Counted from the stretch's first letter, positions 3,202 to 55,300 are shown. The stretch is DNA of 64,000 bases from an uncultured Candidatus Saccharibacteria bacterium (GCA_964543265.1 CAZIWN010000001.1:232977-296976), one strand, 5' to 3'. Numbers and translations: made by a program. The notes: generated by a model from the letters alone, not told the origin.

Positions 3202-3513
3202 TTATGCGGTAATTTTTGTGATCTGTATTTGAGAATAATTCTGTCTGTGTCCCTTTTTCTTTCTTTGTCTTGTTTTTGAGTGGTATTTAAAGACAATAAC
3301 CTTATCAGCCCTACCATTATCCAAAACCTTAGCTTCAACTTTAGCGCCAGCAAGAATAGGCTTACCTATTTGTATATCAGCACCCTTTATTACAGCCAAA
3401 ACCTGATCAAACATAAAAACCTCTCCCGGTTTTTTTTCGAGTTTTTCTATTTTTAACTTTGCCCCTTCGGCAACTTTATATTGTTTTCCTCCTGTTTTTA
3501 TAACTGCGAACAT
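3202..3513 (-). CDS. rplU: 50S ribosomal protein L21
   Basis: MFAVIKTGGKQYKV start. 103 aa. Confidence 0.9.
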   Translation of the reverse strand: MFAVIKTGGKQYKVAEGAKLKIEKLEKKPGEVFMFDQVLAVIKGADIQIGKPILAGAKVEAKVLDNGRADKVIVFKYHSKTRQRKKKGHRQNYSQIQITKITA

Positions 3514-3578
3514 ATTTTTATTCTAAATAATTTTCACTCCTTTTAATTCGTAATTTTAAACGCTTAAATTCTCCTTAT

Positions 3579-3947
3579 TTAGTTGGTTAATATGATAACA
3601 GATGTAAAAACTAAAATCAAGAGAAATAAAGACATTGTTGCAAAAGCCATTAATTTAGCTAAAAAAACGTCATTTTTATAAACCCTTCTAGATATAAATA
3701 AATTTAACAACAGAATAAAAAAGAAAAAAGCATATAACAAACCAATCTCTGTTTTTGAAAAAATATATTTTGAATAACCAGTCAAAGCCTTGATAACTAT
3801 ACTAAATTCACTACTCAAAAAATGAAAATAACTTAAAAAAAATGAAATCAATAAAACAATAAAAGATGCCACAAAACAAGATCTTATAAATCTATTTTCT
3901 TTTAAAAAAATGAATATTTTCAATGATGCTATATTTTTAAAAAACAT
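3579..3947 (-). CDS. hypothetical multi-pass membrane protein
   Basis: 122-aa ORF with 3-4 hydrophobic helices. No recognisable family. Confidence 0.35.
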   Translation of the reverse strand: MFFKNIASLKIFIFLKENRFIRSCFVASFIVLLISFFLSYFHFLSSEFSIVIKALTGYSKYIFSKTEIGLLYAFFFFILLLNLFISRRVYKNDVFLAKLMAFATMSLFLLILVFTSVIILTN

Positions 3948-4020: not shown

Positions 4021-4353
4021 ATGGACAATCTAAATCAAGAAAATAATTTTGGCCAAGAGCCGATACAAAGTTTGAATCAAGAAAAAAAACCAACCATTAT
4101 AGTTATTTCAATAATAGGCGCCTTGTTTATTGTCGGAGCTGTATTGGGTTTTATATACATAAAAAAATCAAAACTCGGCAACGCTCCATACGGAGAAGTT
4201 ATTAATAAAACCTATACCAAAGAAGAAGTCTTGGATTCGATGAATGATAATCTTGTTAGAATTGAAAATCCAGCTATAGACCAAAAAGTTTTAAATAGCT
4301 TATCTGGAACTCCTAAAAAAACAACAAAAACGTCTAATACAATAAAAAAATAA
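4021..4353 (+). CDS. hypothetical single-pass membrane protein
   Basis: 110-aa ORF with one TM helix (IIVISIIGALFIVGAVLGFIYI) and a Lys/Thr-rich tail. Confidence 0.35.
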   Translation: MDNLNQENNFGQEPIQSLNQEKKPTIIVISIIGALFIVGAVLGFIYIKKSKLGNAPYGEVINKTYTKEEVLDSMNDNLVRIENPAIDQKVLNSLSGTPKKTTKTSNTIKK

Positions 4354-6605: not shown

Positions 6606-6609
6606 ATCC

Positions 6610-6645
6610 AAGCTTGCGAATACTACGAGGAGGAATAACAAAGTA
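6610..6645 (+). repeat. intergenic structured repeat, copy 1 (3' half only, truncated)
   Basis: aagcttgcgaatactacgaggaggaataacaaagta matches the second half of the consensus (..AAGC.ATGCGGATACT.CGAGGAG.AAC.ACGAAGTA). Confidence 0.6.
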
Positions 6646-6672
6646 GATCGCTATTAAAATTGAAAAGCTTTT

Positions 6673-15126: not shown

Positions 15127-15188
15127 ATAATACCAGAAATAATAAAATTTGTAAATAAATTACAAATCTTTCGATTATAAAAGATCAG

Positions 15189-15266
15189 CTACAAGGCGCG
15201 AGTGAGTACCGACTGAGATGTATTGATATAAATACTTCGAAGGAGGAGTGGAGTGAGCAACGCCGT
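15189..15266 (+). repeat. intergenic structured repeat, copy 2 (long subfamily with central palindrome)
   Basis: tacAAGGCGCGAGTGAGTACCGACTGAGATGTATTGATATAAATACTTCGAAGGAGGAG...AACGCCGTA. Flanked by inverted repeat cgattataaaagatcagc / gatgaattttataattg. Confidence 0.75.
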
Positions 15267-15323
15267 AGATGAATTTTATAATTGAAAGTATAAAAAAAAT
15301 GAGACCGATTGGTCTCATTTTTT

Positions 15324-18408: not shown

Positions 18409-18473
18409 TACAAGGCGTTTCGACGAAGTTGTATCAGAGCCATGCGGATACTACGAGAAGAAACAACGAAGTA
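18409..18473 (+). repeat. intergenic structured repeat, copy 3 (short subfamily)
   Basis: tacAAGGCGTTTCGACGAAGTTGTATCAGAGCCATGCGGATACTACGAGAAGAAACAACGAAGTA. Confidence 0.8.
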
Positions 18474-18492
18474 TTTTTCAAAAATCAAAACA

Positions 18493-19176
18493 TTACAAAC
18501 TTAAAAGAGCTTTTTTGGCTGCGTCCACCTCTGCATCTTGCTTAGACTGTCCAGTTCCAGTCGCAATCAATTTTTCCCCAAAGAAAACTCCAGAAGTAAA
18601 AACTCTGGCATGGTCTGGTCCTTCTTCTCCTAAAACTTTATAAACTGGAGTTATTTTATTTTTCTCCTGTATTATTTCCTGTAACTTACTTTTGGCATCA
18701 TATTGCAAACCCTTAGCTAAAATCTCTTCTAAATTATTCATTACAAATTTCTTAATAAAAGCCTTGGCTGGCTTAATTCCCCCATCAAGATAAATTGCTC
18801 CAATAACAGCTTCTGCGCCATTAGCCAAAATAACATCTCTGGCTCTCCCAGAATCTTTTGCTTCTCCTTTAGAAAGCAAAATAAAATCATCTAATTTAAA
18901 ATCTCTGGCAATTTTCGCCATCATTTGAAAATTAACCAAAGCAGATCTTATCGGAGTTAATTTCCCTTCTGGGTGTTGCGGAAACAGTAAAAACAATTCC
19001 TCCGTTGTAATAAGCTCTAAAACAGCATCGCCCAAAAACTCCATTCTTTCGTTTTGGCCATACTGCCACTGCGGATTCTCATTCAAATATGAACGATGAG
19101 TCAGCGCTTCTTTTAGAAAATCCTGATTTTTAAATTTATAATCTATTATTTTTTCAAAACTCTTAAAATTATCCAT
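18493..19176 (-). CDS. rnc: ribonuclease III
   Basis: RNase III signature ERMEFLGDAVLEL. C-terminal dsRBD. Confidence 0.9.
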   Translation of the reverse strand: MDNFKSFEKIIDYKFKNQDFLKEALTHRSYLNENPQWQYGQNERMEFLGDAVLELITTEELFLLFPQHPEGKLTPIRSALVNFQMMAKIARDFKLDDFILLSKGEAKDSGRARDVILANGAEAVIGAIYLDGGIKPAKAFIKKFVMNNLEEILAKGLQYDAKSKLQEIIQEKNKITPVYKVLGEEGPDHARVFTSGVFFGEKLIATGTGQSKQDAEVDAAKKALLSL

Positions 19177-20056: not shown

Positions 20057-20491
20057 ATGGACAGCGCAACCGCACCTCTTTCGACGACCCGTTTCGATCG
20101 GACCGGCTTCCAGTTCGACGTGAATTCCGAGATGCAAGAAAGCGTCTTCGACCTCGTCGAAGGCGCCCTGAATCGTGACGGCGAAGTGCGGGCAGAAGGA
20201 ATGCCCGACGAGATCGCCACGATCTCGGAAGCGCACATCTTCGCGGGCGAAGAAGGTCGAGTTCCGGCCACGCTCGAAGAAGCGATGAGCTTCGTCGAGC
20301 GCAACACGACAATCGCAGGTCACTGCGTGGTCGTAGCAACCGGAACCCAGACCTTCCACGGCGGAGAGTTTTTCGTCTTCGCGATTCGCAAGCACGAACG
20401 CGCAGACAAGACCGGCTTCGTCGTGACGACGATCCCGCTCACGAGCACGTGGGCGCGCCACTACAAGGTGGCGCACCTCTCAGCCACCTGA
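20057..20491 (+). CDS. hypothetical acidic 144-aa protein in a GC-rich (~60% GC) islet
   Basis: Only this frame and strand has a promoter, SD and downstream terminator. The three overlapping minus-strand ORFs are high-GC artefacts. Confidence 0.5.
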   Translation: MDSATAPLSTTRFDRTGFQFDVNSEMQESVFDLVEGALNRDGEVRAEGMPDEIATISEAHIFAGEEGRVPATLEEAMSFVERNTTIAGHCVVVATGTQTFHGGEFFVFAIRKHERADKTGFVVTTIPLTSTWARHYKVAHLSAT

Positions 20492-20504
20492 CCTGACCCC
20501 CCAA

Positions 20505-20566
20505 GCCCCGACACTAGAGCCTCTCGCGCACCGCGCGGAGCTCTAGCTGTCGGGGCTTCTTTTTTT
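20505..20566 (+). terminator. long GC-rich compound hairpin plus T-run after the GC-islet ORF
   Basis: gccccgacactagagcctctcgcgcaccgcgcggagctctagctgtcggggc then ttcttttttt. Confidence 0.7.
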
Positions 20567-20655
20567 ACAAAAAAACTTTGTATTTTTCCACTGACTAAAA
20601 TAGAATAAGAGTATTAATCTTAGAAAAATACCAAAATATTAATATTTTTAACAAA

Positions 20656-20718
20656 GACAAGGCGTTTTTGCGAAGCTGTATCAAGCAATGCGGATACAGC
20701 GAGTAAAAAGAACGCAGT
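20656..20718 (+). repeat. intergenic structured repeat, copy 4 (short subfamily), immediately upstream of dnaE
   Basis: gacAAGGCGTTTTTGCGAAGCTGTATCAAGCAATGCGGATACAGCGAGTAAAAAGAACGCAGTA. Its internal ATG is in frame with dnaE and creates a spurious N-terminal extension in the ORF track. Confidence 0.75.
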
Positions 20719-20747
20719 ATTTGTTAGTAAAGATTAATATTAAACCA

Positions 20748-31279: not shown

Positions 31280-31407
31280 GTTTTTATTGTTTATACATAA
31301 TACATCGAACAAATTTAAAAATCAAACGCCAAAACAAAAAACCAACAATATTAAGATTTTTCATAAATACAGCCTAATTTTTCAATCTTGAAATATTAAA
31401 TAGTTAT

Positions 31408-31488
31408 ATGCAAGGCTTGGCCGAGAAGCGAACCGAGATGTACTAAATATTAGTACTTCGAGGGAGCATCGGAGGCCGTAACGAAGCA
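31408..31488 (+). repeat. intergenic structured repeat, copy 5 (long subfamily, central palindrome gtactaaatattagtac)
   Basis: atgCAAGGCTTGGCCGAGAAGCGAACCGAGATGTACTAAATATTAGTACTTCGAGGGAGCATCGGAGGCCGTAACGAAGCA. Flanks aaatagttat / gatagctattt are inverted. Confidence 0.8.
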
Positions 31489-31512
31489 GATAGCTATTTA
31501 AAATTTCAAAAA

Positions 31513-32173: not shown

Positions 32174-32353
32174 TTAAATTATTGTATTTAAAAGATACCC
32201 GAAAACAAAGTCCATTGCTCCCAAGAAAAAAGCTAAGAAAATAGAAAGTCCGATAACGATCAAGGTAAGCTTTCTGGTTTCTGCAAATGTTGGCCAGTTT
32301 ATTCGCCTAAATTCTTGATGCGCGTCTGCGAAAAACAATTTAATTCTATTCAT
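32174..32353 (-). CDS. secE: preprotein translocase subunit SecE (59 aa; below the ORF-track cutoff)
   Basis: Hand translation gives MNRIKLFFADAHQEFRRINWPTFAETRKLTLIVIGLSIFLAFFLGAMDFVFGYLLNTII. Single TM. Conserved secE-nusG order. Confidence 0.7.
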   Translation of the reverse strand: MNRIKLFFADAHQEFRRINWPTFAETRKLTLIVIGLSIFLAFFLGAMDFVFGYLLNTII

Positions 32354-32500
32354 GGAAATATTATATGATATTACGGCTTAAAACGGCAAATGTCAACCGA
32401 GTAGTAGAAATCCGACTATGGATTTTGTCGCCTTGCGATCAGTCAGATTTTCGCTACCTGGTCAACCTCCCCAGAGATTGTTTCGCGATGATTAATTAAG

Positions 32501-32566
32501 TACAAGGAGCAACGACGAAGCTGTATTTGAGCCATGCGGATACTGCAAGGAGTTGGCGACGTAGTA
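32501..32566 (+). repeat. intergenic structured repeat, copy 6 (short subfamily)
   Basis: tacAAGGAGCAACGACGAAGCTGTATTTGAGCCATGCGGATACTGCAAGGAGTTGGCGACGTAGTA. Flanks attaattaag / aattaattaat are inverted. Confidence 0.8.
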
Positions 32567-32590
32567 ATTAATTAATAAGCGCGAAACACC

Positions 32591-34648: not shown

Positions 34649-34824
34649 ATATTATTAAATAAAATAAGCTCTTAATAAGAGTTTTTGAACTACTTAATTA
34701 TATCAAAAAACTGGCCACAAAACAAGCAATTTTTACAAAAGAAAACCACCTACATTACTGTAAGTGGTCGAGGTTGAAACGCTATTTTCAAAAAGTGTCT
34801 ACAAATATCATCACCAAGCCCCTA

Positions 34825-35427
34825 TTATTTCCGTCTAATGAGAGCATAACGGCGGTCGTTCCATTCATCATCCAACCACAAACATCCCCAGAACCACCTG
34901 TAACCGCTCCAAAATAAATGACGAATACATATACCTCCAGCATCATCACGATATCTTGTTCCCCAGAAAAAGATCCATCCGATCCTCTTCCAATCATCGG
35001 GAATGAGCTCTGGGTAGGTAATTAAGTAATCAAGAACATTGGCGTTCAAAACCGGCTCTTTCTCAAGCTCTTTAAGGAGCTTATGGCCTTTAATAACCCT
35101 TCCATTTTGTTGGTTCGGCGAAAGATGCAACACTACAGCCGACAGGTTCCAGTTCAGAACTCCATCTCTTATATGATTTTCCACCTTAAGTCCATCTGGG
35201 ACTAACGGCTTGGCGTCGCAATCGATCTCCCGATTCCGATTATCCGACCCCAAATCAAGTAAATGCCGAAATGCATCTCGATCGACACCATCAACATTTC
35301 CATCTAGTAAATCTGACAATAAACCAGATTCAAGTAGATTCTGTAGGCGTTCTGGAGAAATACGTTTTTCCAGAACCATCTCTAAGATCTTCAAGCCTTG
35401 TGGCAGGGTTGCCAATTTCATTGACAA
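34825..35427 (-). CDS. hypothetical 200-aa protein with Trp-rich C-terminus in a ~45% GC islet
   Basis: ORF with SD AAGGA. Composition atypical for this genome. No family recognised. Confidence 0.3.
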   Translation of the reverse strand: MSMKLATLPQGLKILEMVLEKRISPERLQNLLESGLLSDLLDGNVDGVDRDAFRHLLDLGSDNRNREIDCDAKPLVPDGLKVENHIRDGVLNWNLSAVVLHLSPNQQNGRVIKGHKLLKELEKEPVLNANVLDYLITYPELIPDDWKRIGWIFFWGTRYRDDAGGICIRHLFWSGYRWFWGCLWLDDEWNDRRYALIRRK

Positions 35428-35721
35428 GTCCTTTTAGCTAAGGCGTCGCCGTAATCACTCCAATGCGGAGCAACTTTAGCGGGCCGATTGTGTTGCTTGG
35501 TCATAGCTTAAAAAGCTCATATTTTGTTATTTTTTTACATTAAATATTTTACTCTTTACAAAACACAAGCCCTTAAAGCTATGACCACTTTTATTACCAC
35601 TTTTTAATTAAATTGTAATGTGCTAATTAAATTTATATCACATTAATCCTTAAATGGTCAATTACTAATACACATTACTAAATATATTAGGTAATTATTT
35701 TTTAAATTCAAAAACGGCTAG

Positions 35722-35799
35722 ATGCAAGGCTTGGGCGAGAAGCGATTGAGGTGTATTAATTTAATACTCCGAAAGAGCATCGAAGACCATAACGAAGCA
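35722..35799 (+). repeat. intergenic structured repeat, copy 7 (long subfamily)
   Basis: atgCAAGGCTTGGGCGAGAAGCGATTGAGGTGTATTAATTTAATACTCCGAAAGAGCATCGAAGACCATAACGAAGCA. 24-bp inverted flanks tttaaattcaaaaacggctagatg / cagatggctgtttttcaatttaaa. Confidence 0.8.
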
Positions 35800-35822
35800 G
35801 ATGGCTGTTTTTCAATTTAAAA

Positions 35823-39555: not shown

Positions 39556-41604
<2,049 letters not shown>

Positions 41605-41669
41605 TCAAATAATACCAAAAAAACCAGACTTAAACCAAAAAAAACTCATCTCTTTTTTAGATAAATAAG

Positions 41670-41736
41670 TACAAGAAGCGACGACGAAGCTGTATATAAG
41701 CGAAAGCGAATACTGCGAGGAGGAGACGACGAAGTA
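41670..41736 (+). repeat. intergenic structured repeat, copy 8 (short subfamily)
   Basis: tacAAGAAGCGACGACGAAGCTGTATATAAGCGAAAGCGAATACTGCGAGGAGGAGACGACGAAGTA. Perfect ~21-bp inverted flanks tctcttttttagataaataag / attatttatctaaaaagagat. Confidence 0.85.
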
Positions 41737-41745
41737 ATTATTTAT

Positions 41746-42207
41746 CTAAAAAGAGATACTAAAGGCTCTAGCGGCCGACCCAGCTCTTCCGACAGATTTA
41801 ATACAAGTAAGAACATCTGGAGTCGTTCCCTCATCATGAACCGCACCAAAAGGACAGCCAGCATCTTTAGAAATTAAAAGCTCATAAGTCTGATTGTCGG
41901 TTAATTTACCAGTAAAAGAATTATCATATTGATTATTTCCAGACTCCAAACAAACATCAGTAGAGGCGATAAGCGCCTGATCTGGTGCATTTAAATTATT
42001 ACACCTAAAAACCTTAAAAAGACCTCTCTCCAACGCTGCGTCTGCGGAATATATTGCCTTAACGGAATCAACGGCTATATTCGTTTGTCTAGTTTGATTT
42101 AAGGTTAAAACACCAGCAACAGTAGTTGCGACCAAAAATACAGACGCCAAAAACAAAACAGTAACCAACATAACTTGCCCAGAACTATTTTTATTAAAAA
42201 AGTACAT
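41746..42207 (-). CDS. pilus-assembly / minor pilin-like protein (PilX-like N-terminal helix)
   Basis: N-terminal hydrophobic helix MLVTVLFLASVFLVATTVAGVL. Position in the pilin cluster. Confidence 0.4.
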   Translation of the reverse strand: MYFFNKNSSGQVMLVTVLFLASVFLVATTVAGVLTLNQTRQTNIAVDSVKAIYSADAALERGLFKVFRCNNLNAPDQALIASTDVCLESGNNQYDNSFTGKLTDNQTYELLISKDAGCPFGAVHDEGTTPDVLTCIKSVGRAGSAARAFSISF

Positions 42208-44085: not shown

Positions 44086-45045
44086 CTAATTAATCGGAAA
44101 AAGGCTAAAATAAAAATTTAAAATATCAACACCAAAAAACATTACAACCACAGTGGAAAGAACGATAAACGGACCAAACGGCACCAACGTTTTCATCCCT
44201 GCCCTTTTCCCCAACATTAAAATTATACTCCAAAAAGAACCTATTATAAACGAACCCAAAAGAGCCAAAATAATATCTGGCCAACCCAATAAAACACCCA
44301 AAGCTATCGCTAACTTAACATCGCCAAAGCCCATTCCCCTGCCTCTGCTTAAAAAATATATTCCTCCAAATAAAACCAAACCAAAACCCAACCCCAATAC
44401 ACTAGAAATAAAAATTGAATCTCTAAATCCGAACAATGAAGCATAATGACCTAAAAACGAAAATCTATAAAAATCAAATAAAGAATATTTATATTTAATA
44501 AAAGCTAAAATAATCCCAAGGATTAAAATTAATAAATTCGAACTATCGGGTATAATCCGCAGTCTCAAATCAACTAAAGAAATAAAAACCAGAGTTAGTA
44601 AAAATAATATATAAATTCCGCATAAAATATAAAAAACAACAGGCATAGACCCGATAACAAACTTAAATTCATAAACCCTATTAACTAATTTAGGAACAAA
44701 AACAAAGATTAAACCAGAGATAATCTCGATTATTGGATACTGAAAAGATATTTTTTGCTTACAATTACCACACCTCCCCAAAAGGAATAAGAAACTTAAA
44801 ATGGGAATCAAGTTTATCCAAGAAATTTCCTTACCACAACTCATACAATTGCTTCTTCCAGAAATCTTCTTTAAATCAAAAACTTTTCCATCTTCAGAAT
44901 ATCTTAAAGACAAAACATTTAAAAAACTTCCAAACAATGTTCCAAAAACAAAAAGTATAAAATTTATCATAAAAATATTATTTATTTGTTTTGAATTATA
45001 AATGTCAGCTACAAGGCGCGAGTGAACAAAGACTAATATTATCAC
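44086..45045 (-). CDS. pilD: prepilin peptidase (A24 family)
   Basis: N-terminal CxxC..CGNC zinc motif. 6-8 TM helices. Aspartyl peptidase A24 region. Confidence 0.8.
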   Translation of the reverse strand: MIILVFVHSRLVADIYNSKQINNIFMINFILFVFGTLFGSFLNVLSLRYSEDGKVFDLKKISGRSNCMSCGKEISWINLIPILSFLFLLGRCGNCKQKISFQYPIIEIISGLIFVFVPKLVNRVYEFKFVIGSMPVVFYILCGIYILFLLTLVFISLVDLRLRIIPDSSNLLILILGIILAFIKYKYSLFDFYRFSFLGHYASLFGFRDSIFISSVLGLGFGLVLFGGIYFLSRGRGMGFGDVKLAIALGVLLGWPDIILALLGSFIIGSFWSIILMLGKRAGMKTLVPFGPFIVLSTVVVMFFGVDILNFYFSLFPIN

Positions 45046-45058
45046 ACATTAATTAATC
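45010..45058 (+). repeat. intergenic structured repeat, copy 9a (degenerate 5' part of long subfamily)
   Basis: agctacaaggcgcgagtga is identical to the 19-mer in copy 2. The rest has decayed. Confidence 0.55.
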
Positions 45059-45073
45059 TTTATTTGAGATGAG

Positions 45074-45138
45074 TACAAGACGCGACGACGAAAGTGTACA
45101 TAAGCTAAGCGAGTACTCTGAGGAGGAGCAACGCAGTA
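45074..45138 (+). repeat. intergenic structured repeat, copy 9b (short subfamily), tandem to 9a
   Basis: tacAAGACGCGACGACGAAAGTGTACATAAGCTAAGCGAGTACTCTGAGGAGGAGCAACGCAGTA. 12-bp inverted flanks tatttgagatga / tcatctcaaata. Confidence 0.8.
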
Positions 45139-45155
45139 ATCATCTCAAATATAAA

Positions 45156-45749
45156 TTAATTCCCGTAGAAGCATTCTTTGTTACCCATACAATAATAATC
45201 CCCATCGCAATCTATCCCTCCAGGATAAAGATTCTTACAAGACTCAGAAGAGCAAGAAACCGGTGACAATTTAGAAATTATATCTGCATTATCGATATCA
45301 TCACTTAAAAATTTACTATCAGCAGAAATCCTAGCCCTTAAAATATAGCACTGACCTCTCGGTATAGACGTTCCAGAACCAAGCTGCACAAAATAACTAT
45401 AAGTTTCACCCAAGGAAACATCTGGATCGTTTTGTAGCGGCTCCAATCCTATATCTGCTCTTTTTAATATATCAGACAACTCTTGCCAACTTAAAGGATC
45501 TTCACCTGGGTTATTAGGAGTAACAGCTCCACGACACTCAGAAGACACTATACTGCCAGGATAAAAACCGCATTTCAATTTAAAAAGCTCTAAAGATTGA
45601 GCCGCACTCTTCAAATCTGCAACTCTTTGATCATCTTTTGTTTTTTTTCTCACATCCAATAAACTAGGCAAAACAAGGGAAATAATAACGCCGATAACGC
45701 CGATAACTATTAATATTTCAACCAATGTAAAACCCTTTTTATTGAACAC
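45156..45749 (-). CDS. type IV pilin
   Basis: KKGFTLVEILIVIGVIGVIISL prepilin motif. Cys pair near the C-terminus. Confidence 0.7.
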   Translation of the reverse strand: MFNKKGFTLVEILIVIGVIGVIISLVLPSLLDVRKKTKDDQRVADLKSAAQSLELFKLKCGFYPGSIVSSECRGAVTPNNPGEDPLSWQELSDILKRADIGLEPLQNDPDVSLGETYSYFVQLGSGTSIPRGQCYILRARISADSKFLSDDIDNADIISKLSPVSCSSESCKNLYPGGIDCDGDYYCMGNKECFYGN

Positions 45750-46263: not shown

Positions 46264-46303
46264 ATATTTTTAATTCTTCTAATTTGGATTTATAAAGAGC
46301 AGA

Positions 46304-46367
46304 TACGAGACGTTTCGAGGAAGTTGCATCAAGCTATGCGGATACTACGACGAGAAACAACGAAGTA
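46304..46367 (+). repeat. intergenic structured repeat, copy 10 (short subfamily)
   Basis: tacGAGACGTTTCGAGGAAGTTGCATCAAGCTATGCGGATACTACGACGAGAAACAACGAAGTA. Confidence 0.8.
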
Positions 46368-46388
46368 TATGCCTTTATAAATTCAAAT

Positions 46389-47600
46389 TTATCTAATGAC
46401 TTGTATTAAATTATATATCGGAAGTAGTAGCGCCGCAAACATAAACCCAACCATTAAACCCAAAAACACCATTATAACTGGCTGTATTAATTCAGAGATA
46501 TTAGAAACTAAATTATCAACCTCTCTAGAATAGAAGGAATTTACCTTCTGAAACATTTCTTCCAATTTTCCAGTCTGCTCACCCACAGATATCATCTGCG
46601 TCACAATTGGCGGAAAATATTTAGCATAAAGCTGAAATGCTTGGCTTAATTGTTCACCCCTCCTAAGTCTTTCAACAATTTCGTGTATTACCTCTTCGTA
46701 CAACTCACTGCCAACAGTGTGACCAGCAATCTCCAAAGATTGAGTTATAGGAATTCCTCCCTTAATTAAAACGCTAGCCACTTCAGAAAATCTTGCAATG
46801 TATAATTTTCTGAAAAGATTACCAAGTCCAGGAATTGCCAAAACAATTTGATTTAAAATAGCTTTTCCCTCCCTGCTCCTGAAATAATCCAAAACAATAA
46901 TTAAAAATATTATTATAAAAACAATAATTCCAGCCCACCATTCATTAATAAAGTCTCCTAAACTTAGAAATATTCTAGTTATTAAAGGAAGCTCAAAATT
47001 AGCTTCAGTAAAAATAGGTTTTATCTGCGGAAAAACTAAACCAACCAAAACTCCTCCAACTATAAGCGATAAGCTGATTACAAAAACAGGATAAATCATA
47101 GCTGTCCTCACCTTCGAAGATAAAAGAAGCTCTTTTTCTAAATAATTAGCTAAATACTCCATCACCTCCTCTAGCCTTCCGGTAACTTCAGCAGATTGGA
47201 CCAAATTTACATAGAAATCAAAAAATATATTTCCATGTTTTTGTAAGGATTGAGAGAAAGAAAGTCCAGAACTTATATCCTGAGAAATTTCATATAAAGC
47301 CTCCTTTAAAACAGAATTAGTTGTTTGATAATAAAGAGAATTTAAAGAGTCTGTTAGTGATATTTTCGCGCCCAACATCGCGGCAAATTGTCTAGTAAAT
47401 ATCGCTAAATCTTTAGATTTAACCCTTTTCCAAAAAAGAAAAATTTCGTTATACCATTTAGGCTCCGAATATTTATCTATGCTTAAAATAAAAAGATCAT
47501 GAGAAATTAAGACACTAGTCGCAGTATCTTTATCCACAGCCTCAACATTACCCACCTGAAGCTCTCCAGTTTTTGTTCTTGCGCTGTATCTAAATTTCAT
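46389..47600 (-). CDS. pilC: type IV pilus assembly platform protein PilC (GspF family)
   Basis: Duplicated GspF domains. 403 aa. Three TM segments. Confidence 0.85.
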   Translation of the reverse strand: MKFRYSARTKTGELQVGNVEAVDKDTATSVLISHDLFILSIDKYSEPKWYNEIFLFWKRVKSKDLAIFTRQFAAMLGAKISLTDSLNSLYYQTTNSVLKEALYEISQDISSGLSFSQSLQKHGNIFFDFYVNLVQSAEVTGRLEEVMEYLANYLEKELLLSSKVRTAMIYPVFVISLSLIVGGVLVGLVFPQIKPIFTEANFELPLITRIFLSLGDFINEWWAGIIVFIIIFLIIVLDYFRSREGKAILNQIVLAIPGLGNLFRKLYIARFSEVASVLIKGGIPITQSLEIAGHTVGSELYEEVIHEIVERLRRGEQLSQAFQLYAKYFPPIVTQMISVGEQTGKLEEMFQKVNSFYSREVDNLVSNISELIQPVIMVFLGLMVGFMFAALLLPIYNLIQVIR

Positions 47601-48694: not shown

Positions 48695-48790
48695 ATTTGT
48701 TTATTTATAAATTATAACTTATTTAGTAATCCCCTGCGAAGTGTAAAAATATATAAAATCTATTTAAGAAAATTATAAAAATTAAGAAAG

Positions 48791-48855
48791 TGCGCAGAGC
48801 GACGACGAAGTTGCATTAAAGCTGTGCGGATACTGCGAGGAGAAACGACAAAGCA
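48791..48855 (+). repeat. intergenic structured repeat, copy 11 (short subfamily)
   Basis: tgcGCAGAGCGACGACGAAGTTGCATTAAAGCTGTGCGGATACTGCGAGGAGAAACGACAAAGCA. Confidence 0.8.
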
Positions 48856-48875
48856 ATTTCTTCATTTTTATAATT

Positions 48876-50615
48876 TTAAACCACTTCCGTTTCGCTAATT
48901 ACATCCTCTATCGAAACAAGTCCCTGCAAAGCTTTTATAATTCCGTCTTGCCTCAATGAGACCATTCCTTGTCTTTCAGCTTCCTTAGAAATATCATTCT
49001 CTGAAAAATTCTTTCCGGCCAAAATCTGAGACAATTCTTTTGTCATCTCAAAAACTTCAAAAATAGCCACACGACCAACTATTCCCTTATTTTTACAAAC
49101 CTTACAACCATTAGCTTTATACACCTTAAACGGTTCTTTTATCTGAAACTTGCTCTGTATGGAAGATAATTCTTTCTTTATAACATTTAAAATCTCTGGT
49201 GATGGATCGTGCGACGTCTTACAGTTATCGCACAATTTAGAAATCAATCTTTGTCCCGCCATAGCAGAAATCGCGGAAGGTAAAAGATATCCAGAAACAC
49301 CCAAATCTATTAATCTAGGAATAACTCCGACAGCATTATTTGTGTGTAAAGTTGAAAGCAGTATGTGACCAGTTAAAGCAGCATTAACGGCCAAATCTGC
49401 AGTTTCTTTATCGCGAATTTCTCCAACCATTAAAATATCCGGATCTTGTCTTAATATTTCTCTAAGTCCTGACGCAAAGCTATATCCTATCTCTGGCTTA
49501 ATTTGAGATTGATTAATGCCCTCAATCGTATATTCAACAGGATCTTCCAAACTCATAACATTAACATTTTCCTTATTTAAAATTTTCATCAGAGCATACA
49601 AAGTGGTTGTTTTTCCTGATCCAGTTGGACCAGTTAGAAGAACCATACCATAAGCCCTCTCTATAGCCCTTCTTAGAATTTCCGAGCTTTGTCCAACAAT
49701 ACCCAAATCCTCAAGATTTTTTAAGCCAGTAGCGCTATCCAAAACCCTCAAAGCAACCTTTTCGCCATTAGGTGTTGGGAAAGTTGAAACCCTGAAATCT
49801 ATTTCCTTTTCAAAAATCATCGTCCTAAATCTTCCATCTTGGGGAATCCTGGTTTCATCCAGCTTCAAACTAGAAAGAATTTTTACACGAGAAACTATGG
49901 CCTGAGATAATTCTGGAGGAAAAGAAGTGTATTCTTCTAAATTTCCATTTAATCTAAATCTAACCCTAGTCTTTAGTCTTCCCGGCTCTATATGAATATC
50001 AGATGCTTTAGCCCCCACAGCCTCTTTCAAAAGACCAGAAACTATTCTTATTATGGGAGCGCCAATTTCTTTATTTGAAGAACTGGCTTCATCTAGCTTA
50101 ATAATTTTTTGAAACGATTTAAATTCGTCAGCTCCTTTTTCCGATTTTAAAAAACTTAAAGCTTCCTTTATCTCATCCGATATTGGATTATATTTATTAA
50201 TTACCGCATAAACATCAGAAGGAGTAACTATATAAACACCAAGGTTAACCTTTTCTCTTGAAGCTAAAAATTTTAAAGCCTGCTGGGCTTGTGTATCGTC
50301 TGGATTCACCATTCCAACCACAATCATATCCTGAGTTCTACTCATAGGAGTCATCTTAAAACTCCTAGCATTATCAAAAGGAATTAACTTAACTAAATCT
50401 TCTGATATAGAAGCAACATCTATTTTTTTAAAAGGTATTTTTAAGATTCTTGATTTTATCTTAGCAACATCATCTTCGGAAACTAAATTATCAGAATAAA
50501 TAACCTCTTCAGCAGTTTTTTTTACAGAATCAGCCTCTCTTAAAACCCTAGACCCATCTTCTTGTGTTAAAAGACCTTCTGTTACTAAGGCAGAAATTAA
50601 ATCCTGGTTTTTCAT
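48876..50615 (-). CDS. pilB: type IV pilus assembly ATPase PilB (GspE family)
   Basis: N-terminal GspII domain. Walker A GPTGSGKTT. Tetracysteine CDNC...CKVC. 579 aa. Confidence 0.85.
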   Translation of the reverse strand: MKNQDLISALVTEGLLTQEDGSRVLREADSVKKTAEEVIYSDNLVSEDDVAKIKSRILKIPFKKIDVASISEDLVKLIPFDNARSFKMTPMSRTQDMIVVGMVNPDDTQAQQALKFLASREKVNLGVYIVTPSDVYAVINKYNPISDEIKEALSFLKSEKGADEFKSFQKIIKLDEASSSNKEIGAPIIRIVSGLLKEAVGAKASDIHIEPGRLKTRVRFRLNGNLEEYTSFPPELSQAIVSRVKILSSLKLDETRIPQDGRFRTMIFEKEIDFRVSTFPTPNGEKVALRVLDSATGLKNLEDLGIVGQSSEILRRAIERAYGMVLLTGPTGSGKTTTLYALMKILNKENVNVMSLEDPVEYTIEGINQSQIKPEIGYSFASGLREILRQDPDILMVGEIRDKETADLAVNAALTGHILLSTLHTNNAVGVIPRLIDLGVSGYLLPSAISAMAGQRLISKLCDNCKTSHDPSPEILNVIKKELSSIQSKFQIKEPFKVYKANGCKVCKNKGIVGRVAIFEVFEMTKELSQILAGKNFSENDISKEAERQGMVSLRQDGIIKALQGLVSIEDVISETEVV

Positions 50616-52061: not shown

Positions 52062-52127
52062 TACAAGGAGCTCTGACGAAGCCGTATTAAAGCCAAGCAC
52101 ATACGGCAAGAAAGAATCGATGCAGTA
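52062..52127 (+). repeat. intergenic structured repeat, copy 12 (short subfamily, perfect internal stem gccgtat/atacggc)
   Basis: tacAAGGAGCTCTGACGAAGCCGTATTAAAGCCAAGCACATACGGCAAGAAAGAATCGATGCAGTA. Confidence 0.8.
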
Positions 52128-53979: not shown

Positions 53980-54018
53980 AAACCACATAGGATTTATAAT
54001 TTAAATAAATTTAAAAAA

Positions 54019-54094
54019 TACGAGGAGTTTCGACGAAGGTGTATGTAAGCCACGCGAATACTCCGAGGAGAAAACGACAAAGTATTTTTTAAAT
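54019..54094 (+). repeat. intergenic structured repeat, copy 13 (short subfamily)
   Basis: tacGAGGAGTTTCGACGAAGGTGTATGTAAGCCACGCGAATACTCCGAGGAGAAAACGACAAAGTA. Perfect 16-bp inverted flanks aaataaatttaaaaaa / ttttttaaatttattt. Confidence 0.85.
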
Positions 54095-54103
54095 TTATTT
54101 AAA

Positions 54104-55300
54104 TTAATACCCTTCTTGTTTTTCTGCGTCTATAACATATTGCCCAACATCCACAACTTGCGCCTTAGTTACTTTTTTCAAAGATTTTGAAGAAATTCCA
54201 TTACCATCAACATCAACAGTAATCAATCCAGAAACTCCAGACCAATTAGTTAAAGACTTCATCCATTCAGAAATATTTTTTATATTAACTTCTCCCCCAT
54301 GATAATTTGCGGAAAAAGCATCCTTAATCACAAAAAGAGCATCATAAGCATAAAAAGCCATTCCTATCGGATATTCTCCATAAACAGCCTTATATTCTTC
54401 TCTAAAATTTTGAGCTGCTAAATTATTCTTCCAATCTATATCAGTTGATATAGCTAAAGATCCCTCAAACGTTTTTGGATTCTTTGAGATGTTTTCGCTA
54501 TCAAAAATAGAAATTGGCGAAGCAAAATATGCATTAATTCCTTTTTCTCTTATTTTCTTTAAAATTTCAAAGCTATTATCTTTTGAATCCACGGCGACAT
54601 AAACAGCTTCCGGTTTTATAGTCTTAATTTCATCTATAATTTCCTGCGTGTCTTTTGAAAAATCAACCGCAGAATCTAAAACAACTTCACCGTCCGATTC
54701 TGAAAAATATTTTCTAAAACTATCAGATGATGCTTCTCCAAATTTAGTTTTATCGTGAAGTATCGCAGATTTACTAACTTTAAGATCGTTTATAAAATAA
54801 TTTGCCAAAAAAGAACCTTCAAAAAAGTCTGGCGAAGTTACAGAATAAGCAGACTCACCAGCCCCAGATACTCCATAATCAAGACCAGAATAAGAAACCA
54901 TAATTCCGCCATAATTTTTTACAACTCCAGAGATAGAAGCCACCTCTTCCTTGCACGATCCGGCAATTATAATTTTTATTCCCAAATCTATTAATTTTTT
55001 AGCAGACTCTCCGCTTTTTTTAGAATCACAACCTCCATCCTCAAAAACTACGCTTATCTTCCTTCCATCCACGCCTCCGACATCATTAATTTTTTTCTGC
55101 CCAAGCTCCAATGCCCCCTTAACAGCCAAAACTTCAACAGAGTCATTATCCATAGGCAAAATAGCCCCAATCTTTATTTCAGACTGAGAATCGGAAGAAT
55201 AATTAGGAAATATAGCAAAACCACCAATTGCAAAAACGGCTATCAAAAAAACAAAAGTTATAATCCTTATCATTAGCTTAAATAGTATATAATTAAACAA
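54104..55300 (-). CDS. ABC transporter substrate-binding protein, type-1 PBP (Leu/Ile/Val-binding family)
   Basis: Signal/TM anchor. IKIGAILPM..G..A..GA.LA periplasmic binding fold. Confidence 0.65.
   Translation of the reverse strand: MFNYILFKLMIRIITFVFLIAVFAIGGFAIFPNYSSDSQSEIKIGAILPMDNDSVEVLAVKGALELGQKKINDVGGVDGRKISVVFEDGGCDSKKSGESAKKLIDLGIKIIIAGSCKEEVASISGVVKNYGGIMVSYSGLDYGVSGAGESAYSVTSPDFFEGSFLANYFINDLKVSKSAILHDKTKFGEASSDSFRKYFSESDGEVVLDSAVDFSKDTQEIIDEIKTIKPEAVYVAVDSKDNSFEILKKIREKGINAYFASPISIFDSENISKNPKTFEGSLAISTDIDWKNNLAAQNFREEYKAVYGEYPIGMAFYAYDALFVIKDAFSANYHGGEVNIKNISEWMKSLTNWSGVSGLITVDVDGNGISSKSLKKVTKAQVVDVGQYVIDAEKQEGY

Follow-up and report, generated by a model that had tools for sequence, protein, structure and literature searches.

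IS1397, ISKpn1, and elements of the IS110/IS1111 family insert into REP sequences or other palindromes, and class C group II introns target terminator hairpins. Among small repeats, the SPRITE element of Streptococcus pneumoniae, a hairpin repeat with a terminator-like layout, is cited in one report (PMC10969869), and a passage of another report gives REPs as sequences of 20 to 40 nt with a GTAG or CGTC tag (PMC3733652). The element described here, found in a 64-kb stretch of DNA that we refer to as the window, is small, non-coding, multicopy, and intergenic and forms a long hairpin with a terminator-like layout, as do the Correia/NEMIS repeats of Neisseria, the SPRITE, RUP, and BOX repeats of S. 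pneumoniae, and ERIC, repeats that also insert beside or into one another.

A repeat family with copy-specific palindromic arms

The copy at positions 41649 to 41757, termed c8, is probably one copy of a small non-autonomous mobile DNA repeat. Its A-type core (41670 to 41736, plus strand; 67 nt, TACAAGAAGCGACGACGAAGCTGTATATAAGCGAAAGCGAATACTGCGAGGAGGAGACGACGAAGTA) has the ends TACAAGAAGCGACGACGAAG...GACGACGAAGTA, is bounded on both sides by the direct repeat AAGTA, and matched a covariance model of the family (R1) at 85.4 bits. The core is enclosed by a left arm of 21 nt (41649 to 41669, no strand assigned; TCTCTTTTTTAGATAAATAAG), which has a core-less ortholog in a relative (L120), and a right arm (41737 to 41757, no strand assigned; ATTATTTATCTAAAAAGAGAT) that pairs with it. 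Both neighbors are minus-strand genes, one encoding NAD-dependent DNA ligase (39556 to 41601) and the other an ORF of 153 aa (41746 to 42207), whose stop codon is overlapped by the right arm. On the minus strand, a U8 tract comes after the whole hairpin, and the core lies in the loop of the same stem. With a stable stem, a U tract, and a gene upstream, the arms at this site have the layout of an intrinsic (Rho-independent) terminator and are predicted to be one.

The window holds 12 full and 2 partial copies of this repeat, with cores of 65 to 80 nt, all on the plus strand and all intergenic. Nine of the full copies are A-type (c3, c4, c6, c8, c9b, c10, c11, c12, and c13), two are of a longer C-type (c5 and c7), and one is B-type (c2); the half copies, c1 and c9a, were recognized by eye. 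R1 was built from the nine canonical A-type copies, and the family was also traced by repeat finding. When the window was scanned with R1, these nine copies were returned at 75 to 91 bits together with three weaker variant copies, all on the plus strand, and no copy was found on the minus strand. The A-type copies other than c8 are c3 (18409 to 18494, core 18409 to 18473; 90.9 bits), which has its original right arm and a replaced left arm; c4 (20635 to 20741, core 20656 to 20719; 76.3 bits), which lies between two plus-strand genes; c6 (32479 to 32588, core 32501 to 32566; 87.5 bits); c9b (45051 to 45161, core 45074 to 45138; 87.6 bits); c10 (46281 to 46389, core 46304 to 46367; 83 bits, with an ortholog in L125 at 63 bits); c11 (48769 to 48877, core 48791 to 48855; 78 bits), an arm of which overlaps the stop codon of PilB; c12 (52062 to 52127; 75 bits), a core without arms; and c13 (53997 to 54106, core 54019 to 54084; 89.7 bits), which was also found as an inverted repeat and has perfect 25-bp arms. 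C-type copy c5 (31388 to 31509, core 31409 to 31488) occupies the gap between NusG and L11, and c7 (35700 to 35822, core 35722 to 35799) sits at the edge of a 1.1-kb insertion; they scored 66 and 67.8 bits, respectively, with a second model, R2, described below. B-type copy c2 (15170 to 15290, core 15191 to 15267) has arms conserved in the family and is absent from relatives L234 and L237. A B-type 5′ half, c9a (44989 to 45040), corresponds to a full B copy at the orthologous site of L120, and only the 3′ half remains of c1 (6606 to 6646). These last five copies are likewise on the plus strand. The window has a G+C content of 34%, its GC skew is negative throughout, and most of its genes are on the minus strand; by its protein homologs, it belongs to Patescibacteria (Pacebacteria/Paceibacterota names). 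For most copies, the genes on either side run antisense to the structured strand. The copies lie on the C-rich strand in 13 of 13 cases, including c4 and c1, which adjoin plus-strand genes.

The surroundings of several copies merit mention. The apical ATG of c4 (20688) is in frame with DnaE, which places the mechanically called ORF start 60 nt too early; the true start is at about 20748. The RNase III gene (18493 to 19176) directly adjoins c3, a position probably shared by coincidence; long perfect arms, if transcribed, would be RNase III substrates. The insertion next to c7 (34700 to 35700) puts about 1.1 kb between PheS and GyrB, where L126 has an 85-bp gap; it carries a minus-strand ORF of 200 aa (34825 to 35427) that had no Pfam or NCBIfam match, and by eye its G+C content exceeds that of its surroundings. 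Between SecE and c6, about 110 nt (32353 to 32478) that appear G+C-richer by eye are missing from L126 and L127; this stretch is partly bracketed by the direct repeat GTCAACC and could represent either a further small insertion or an RNA that has escaped annotation. Finally, the region 20057 to 20566, which is far GC-richer than the window otherwise is, carries a plus-strand ORF of 144 aa, conserved in L234 and L237 (143 aa) and without a domain match, that is followed by a long GC-rich hairpin and a T7 run resembling a strong terminator.

The core consists of two halves that form a direct rather than an inverted repeat (ACAAGGAGC..CGACGAAG, twice), and the hairpin fold consequently consists of C-G pairs spaced by tandem G.A mismatches (5′-GA/3′-AG steps). 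The core folds as an imperfect hairpin with the inner helix GYTGTAT/ATACTRC and a small apex; in c8, C-G pairs alternate with tandem G.A mismatches in a ladder capped by a GAAA apex. Compensatory changes keep pairing in 9 of the 19 predicted pairs (counted over only nine A-type sequences), and where c8 and c9b have one particular G.A/A.G step, c3, c10, and c13 have U-A/U-A and c6 has A-U/A-U. The plus-strand fold of the core was more stable than the minus-strand fold in 10 of 10 window copies. When pair types were summed over the predicted pairs of 48 family sequences, about 107 G.U pairs stood against 12 A.C pairs; this excess indicates that it is the structure of the purine-rich strand that is kept, and it points to an RNA or single-stranded DNA form.

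Several other identities for the core were considered and rejected. Translation of a small peptide (MRIL...) from the apical ATG was set aside because the ATG is missing in c8, c9b, c12, and c13, and the core is non-coding. Neither a Shine-Dalgarno role for the AAGGAG motifs nor a Rho-utilization site on the pyrimidine-rich strand fits, the orientation being random with respect to genes in the former case and random in other genomes in the latter. Likenesses to 5S rRNA loop E, SRP domain IV, the 23S GTPase center, and group II intron domain 5 extend over a few bases or copies and lack Rfam support, as does the likeness to the pMV158 nick site (TACTACGAC, in c10 only), and in a comparison with the canonical k-turn the bulge is wrongly placed.

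The 26-nt left flank of each full copy was tested for pairing both against the right flank of that copy and against those of the other full copies. Own duplexes had energies of −11 to −20 kcal/mol in 10 of the 12 full copies, whereas the 132 cross-pairings between copies had a mean of −4.3 kcal/mol (standard deviation, 2.3), and none reached the median own value; the palindromes are therefore real and copy-specific and are no effect of AT-richness. The exceptions were c12, which has no arms (own duplex, only −4.4 kcal/mol), and c3. In the same gap of L234, a left arm stands beside a truncated core, and the right arm of c3 (TTTTTCAAAAATCAAAACATT) is the exact complement of that left arm; this indicates that c3, now chimeric, originally had perfect 21-bp arms. 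Pairing of the arms is complete in c13 (25/25) and c9b (12/12), in both cases around an imperfect core, and the bases adjoining the core are conserved (AAG on the left and ATT on the right). The B-type arms are related across four copies (c2, c9a, and two copies in L120), and the C-type arms of c5 and c7 are related to each other and differ by compensatory changes. The coordinates and flank sequences quoted in the original prediction were correct on re-check. Its central observation, that each core is centered in a palindrome differing from copy to copy, stands for 10 of the 12 full copies, with c12 and c3 as exceptions, and holds strictly for the A type only. It had also noted that removal of the core plus one TA restores a perfect palindrome; this follows from the closing helix of the core (P1, TAC/GTA), to which the boundary TA...TA belongs. 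A TA duplication is not a feature of the family, whose consensus termini are YRCAAGG...AACGAAGYA with the closing helix YRC/GYA, since c5, c7, and c11 end in TGC...GCA and have no TA at their boundaries.

Relatives of the core in other bacteria

A strict A-type pattern gave zero matches in metagenome contigs, and a 15-base pattern scan of genome contigs was discarded as too loose, 119 of its 119 loci being chance matches. With a pattern based on the C-type termini (TGCAAGGCNTG, 50 to 70 nt, then TAACGAAGCA), 104 loci were found in metagenome contigs against about 20 expected by our own estimate, and about 78 of the 104 were evident true relatives of 75 to 82 nt. These relatives share a fold composed of a UGC/GCA helix, an asymmetric module, a long helix of variable sequence, a second internal loop, and an apical helix. 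The module is conserved, with 5′-AAGGCUUGCGA paired against GAGCGUAACGAAG-3′ and containing tandem G.A mismatches; in one subgroup, the run U.G, G-C, C-G, G.A, A.G is replaced by five Watson-Crick pairs (AUGGAG/CUCCAU). R2, the covariance model built from an alignment of C-type relatives, gave 89 matches, including second copies in 11 of the 8- to 14-kb metagenome slices, and it retrieved c5 and c7 (66 to 68 bits), the relatives in L127 and L234, and, weakly, the B-type copies. The A-type copies are linked to this wider family by the common termini, by a common architecture, and by weak reciprocal model matches, and a copy in L127 with an A-like apex is intermediate in form. On this comparison of sequences and folds, the A-type copies likely belong to the widespread C-type-like family.

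Carrier contigs, assigned from the cluster names of neighboring proteins, included Marinilabilia salmonicolor and Anaerophaga (Bacteroidota), a Pseudomonadota MAG, a Deltaproteobacteria MAG, a Thermoanaerobaculia-like organism, and Candidatus Nomurabacteria (Patescibacteria). The core family is old and widespread. Rfam 15 gave no gathering-score match in the window or in 8 metagenome loci; nothing appeared in 5 loci at E ≤ 5, and around c8 there were only chance-level matches at E ≤ 10. Literature searches by topic and by consensus strings returned no description of the family, the strings being absent from the papers of the collection searched. Separately, close strains (L151 [4140 to 4290], L229, L162, L213, and L197) differ in having one or two copies of a unit of about 45 nt (AAGGGAGCATACCGGGCGTATGTGACCGATGAGAAGA) that resembles the apical half of the core family.

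How the relatives behave bears on mobility. One lake genome (group 1) has 15 copies of a unit of about 150 nt with the ends GATGC.../...GCCATC, and at least seven of these copies lie between 6-bp direct repeats whose sequence varies (AATAAA, ACTGAT, AAATTT, AAAGGT, ATATTT, and ACCAAT). Direct repeats lying outside the arms are a classical MITE signature and indicate that in this group arms and core move as one unit. Shared terminal inverted repeats (TIRs) are present in groups 1 and 2 and in the B type, and in the Marinilabilia/Anaerophaga group conservation across genera extends to the arms as well as the core. The claim that the flanks are not classical MITE TIRs accordingly holds for the A-type copies of the window but not for the family as a whole. 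The window copies resemble MITEs in being small (<300 bp), non-coding, multicopy, and intergenic, but the A-type copies, c8 included, have no common TIR; a target duplication could not be fixed for them from the window boundaries, the relatives being too divergent. As for an autonomous partner, there were no TIR-only occurrences in the group 1 slices, no transposase domain among the 20 window ORFs scanned, and no recombinase candidate in the window. Relative to neighboring ORFs, family members elsewhere were sense in 12 cases and antisense in 13; 14 lay between convergent and 6 between divergent genes. The GC skew of the flanks, read on the element strand, was negative in 39 of 57 loci, not all of which are independent, and this modest evidence suggests that orientation follows replication rather than transcription. 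Many family members have the order A-run, short GC stem, core, matching stem, and T-run, the arrangement of a bidirectional terminator.

Orthologous sites and the histories of core and arms

Three relatives were compared: relative 1 (L120/L121 and L234 to L236; PilC 91%, SMC 93% identical), relative 2 (L125/L126/L237; PilC 92%, GyrB 93%, SMC 89%), and relative 3 (L122/L127; PilC 77%, GyrB 84%). The same regions hold 11 copies in the window and 0 to 3 in the relatives at 89 to 93%. At the c8 site, the gap of L120 is occupied by ATATCCTTTTAGATAAACAATAATTATTTATTAAAAGGAGAT, an uninterrupted palindrome without a core. On the gene-sense strand, this sequence forms a hairpin with a 21-bp stem, a 3-nt loop, and a U6 tract (−20.1 kcal/mol, z = −3.5), just after the stop codon of the upstream gene, and its arms differ from those of c8 in the window by one compensatory T-A to C-G change. 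The L120 palindrome looks like an intrinsic terminator of the upstream minus-strand gene, a putative assignment made from the predicted fold. The outgroup (L122) is unalignable at this gap, so the empty palindrome is not polarized; insertion of the core and its precise loss are indistinguishable at c8, and slippage at the AAGTA repeats gives the same picture.

The other sites differ. An ortholog of c4 is present in L234 (73 bits), and L237 lacks both the copy and any such arms. Copy c10 is common to the window and L125, and in the same gap L120 holds a B-type copy with other arms. At c3, c5, c6, c7, c9b, and c11, the gaps of the compared relatives are short and hold neither core nor arms: the c6 gap of L126, for instance, is 48 bp long and contains no hairpin, and c11 is absent together with its arms from L120 and L125. 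In the c5 gap of L127, a copy is present with different arms. Copy c2 sits beside, not within, a conserved terminator. A single element-poor genome (SIBX01) underlies most of the comparisons that show joint absence, and little of the intergenic DNA can be aligned. The DNA specific to the window is often longer than arms plus core (about 165 to 190 nt at c6 and c11 and 1.1 kb at c7), an excess that points to a more complex history at these sites. The idea that the core inserts into the apex of existing hairpins is thus partly supported: an empty site in the expected form of an uninterrupted palindrome is present in L120 at c8, and the unlike arms around homologous cores also favor it, but at six or seven other sites (c3, c4, c5, c6, c7, c9b, and c11), arms and core are jointly absent. 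The alternative offered with it, that the outer stem is an evolving part of a functional structure, has some support from the compensatory arm changes between c8 and L120, between c5 and c7, and in flank columns of the 48-sequence alignment.

Other features of these gaps were noted in passing. A second palindromic repeat, without the core (CACTTCGNTAAATTTTTG...CAAAAATTT..CGAATTAGA), occurs in unrelated intergenic gaps at about 9900 to 9960 of L120 and 13930 to 13990 of L234, and small palindromic repeats of more than one family are therefore present in these genomes. In the gap where the window has c13, L120 has a gene for a protein of the bAvd or 23S-rRNA-intervening-sequence type (3254 to 3616). 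Proteins of this kind often accompany diversity-generating retroelements.

The histories of core and arms can be compared directly. Between orthologs, the core is 92% and the arms are 95 to 100% identical for c4 (window versus L234), and the core is 86% and the arms are 90 to 100% identical for c10 (window versus L125); orthologous arms are at least as well conserved as the cores, so arms change no faster than cores, and fast divergence of the arms is rejected as the cause of their being unlike. Among the 36 pairs of A-type paralogs in the window, core identity averages 72% and reaches 88% (c3 and c10), and the arms average 53.5%, against 52.3 ± 7.8% for shuffled arms. Arms at the random level around homologous cores mean that the A-type arms have not diverged from one ancestral pair and, hence, that the core has been joined to different palindromes more than once. 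Nor were the arms made from the target by inverted duplication, since empty sites lack them. No A-type arms recurred elsewhere in about 190 kb of window and relatives, orthologs aside, and no case was found of identical arms with and without a core inside a single genome. Arms and core also part company at one site shared by L184 and L196, where arms and flanks are about 95% identical and the cores only 61 to 64%. At that site, the core of L184 (about 1470 to 1600, versus 2354 to 2441 in L196) is lengthened at its apex by about 125 nt, within which lies a second end-like motif, ...AACAACGAAGCG; judged from this arrangement, the extra DNA may have inserted, as a nested element, into the apex of a hairpin.

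Possible origins and relation to known systems

The explanation that we favor, though tentatively and at somewhat less than even chances, is that we are dealing with the structured core of a MITE-like element and that the A-type core has also been placed or swapped by itself at the apex of unrelated palindromes, the c8 terminator included. The defining part of the non-autonomous element is a strand-asymmetric hairpin core of 65 to 80 nt, with purine-rich loops, tandem G.A mismatches, and covarying inner helices. In most genomes, the core rides within a longer palindrome as a MITE; in the window genome, the A-type core has been joined to unrelated palindromes, most likely by insertion or exchange at a hairpin apex, and at 41649 to 41757 the receiving hairpin would be the intrinsic terminator of the upstream minus-strand gene. 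Hairpin apices might be targeted because only the loop is single stranded, and a structure-specific enzyme acting on one strand could move the core. We infer this movement of the core by itself from its association with unlike arms; c12 shows that a core can exist without arms.

A bolder form of this idea, that the G.A-rich core is its own kind of mobile unit, put into the apices of terminators and other MITEs, which then transport it, by a structure-specific single-strand enzyme, strikes us as possible but doubtful; it would explain the presence of one core within unrelated arms in at least five phyla. Slightly less credible to us, and on the whole unlikely, is the chief rival account, that arms and core are always mobile together, as in an ordinary MITE, and that the L120 palindrome is the footprint of a central deletion by replication slippage. 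Relatives lacking both arms and core at six or seven sites are what this account predicts, the conserved TIRs and 6-bp target duplications of group 1 are its hallmarks, and the B-type arms conserved in four copies and the related arms of c5 and c7 agree with it. At c8 itself, the bounding AAGTA repeat could mediate precise loss of the core, and the L120 hairpin, being long and AT-rich with a minimal loop, is unlike the usual GC-rich-centered terminators of the window. The account must, however, derive the differing A-type arms from donors outside the 64-kb window or from many subfamilies, and it is at odds with nine A-type copies that have nine unrelated arm pairs around cores as alike as orthologs and with the lack of any A-type arm recurrence, other than orthologs, in about 190 kb. 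Moreover, a DDE-type transposase requires conserved ends, and the A type has only AAG and ATT.

It is improbable, in our estimation, that the copies are host-selected structured RNAs, not now mobile, serving as terminators, processing or stability elements, or protein-binding hairpins with the outer stem as closing helix. Covariation in the inner helices and flank columns speaks for such a role, as do the compensatory arm changes (c8 versus L120 and c5 versus c7), the bidirectional-terminator layout of many family members, the invariably intergenic location with its 14 convergent and 6 divergent gaps, and the presence of an RNase III gene. Yet an RNA function sits poorly with random orientation elsewhere (12 sense versus 13 antisense), with a structured strand that is antisense to the flanking genes for most window copies, with the contrast in copy number between the window and its close relatives, and with the 6-bp target duplications of group 1; in addition, no promoter-like site was found near c8. 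That the core inserts at any site and a palindrome later extends outward from it, through template switching in replication that copies one flank inverted onto the other, would suit the often perfect arms around imperfect cores (c13 and c9b), the armless c12, and orthologous cores that change faster than arms, with changes that raise pairing, but it is very improbable, as one arm should match the ancestral flank and neither arm is found in the empty sites of c4, c6, and c11, whereas L120 has both arms at c8.

Should our favored reading of a MITE-like element with a core that can also be placed alone hold, this would be a repeat family conserved and recognizable in its structured center rather than its ends; it occurs in distant phyla, cultured Bacteroidota among them, and has no entry in RNA-family catalogues. 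Movement of the core alone into the apices of hairpins, if real, would represent a new mechanism of target choice, one that remodels terminators and other repeats, and it would partly explain the intergenic expansion in an otherwise streamlined Patescibacteria genome. Even as an ordinary MITE, the strand-asymmetric rod of tandem G.A mismatches points to a protein partner and gives a marker for annotating repeats.

Among known systems, the nearest analogue of the proposed apex insertion is the choice of palindromes or hairpins by IS1397/ISKpn1, IS110/IS1111 elements, and class C introns; those are autonomous, kilobase-sized elements whose enzymes are known, whereas here the core is non-coding and 65 to 80 nt long. 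Recognition of a single-stranded hairpin, as in REP/REPIN-RAYT systems and the PATEs of IS200/IS605, would explain both the strand-specific structure of the core and the GC-skew bias in its orientation. The size and termini of the core nevertheless differ from those of REPs and REPINs, and no RAYT gene was seen in the window, which covers part of the genome only. IS200/IS605 miniatures consist of two subterminal hairpins and insert 3′ of a fixed tetranucleotide with no target duplication, whereas the window element is a single long hairpin and the target duplications of group 1 are 6 bp long and variable. No Y1/HUH gene was seen. The attC sites of integrons are likewise imperfect palindromes that are read as a folded single strand and are variable in sequence but conserved in structure. 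In attC, however, the conserved boxes are outermost and the center is variable, the reverse of the window element, and on inspection of the alignment GCGTAAC/GTTACGC does not fit the attC boxes RYYYAAC/GTTRRRY. With the hairpin-forming MITEs of bacteria, the group 1 relatives share TIRs and target duplications. The element departs from those MITEs in that its center rather than its ends is conserved, the A-type copies having no common TIR, and in that this center is a strand-asymmetric, G.A-rich, non-Watson-Crick rod. We therefore file it as a MITE-like palindromic repeat that is unusual in where its conservation lies: in a G.A-rich structured center common across phyla, with arms that are free to differ.
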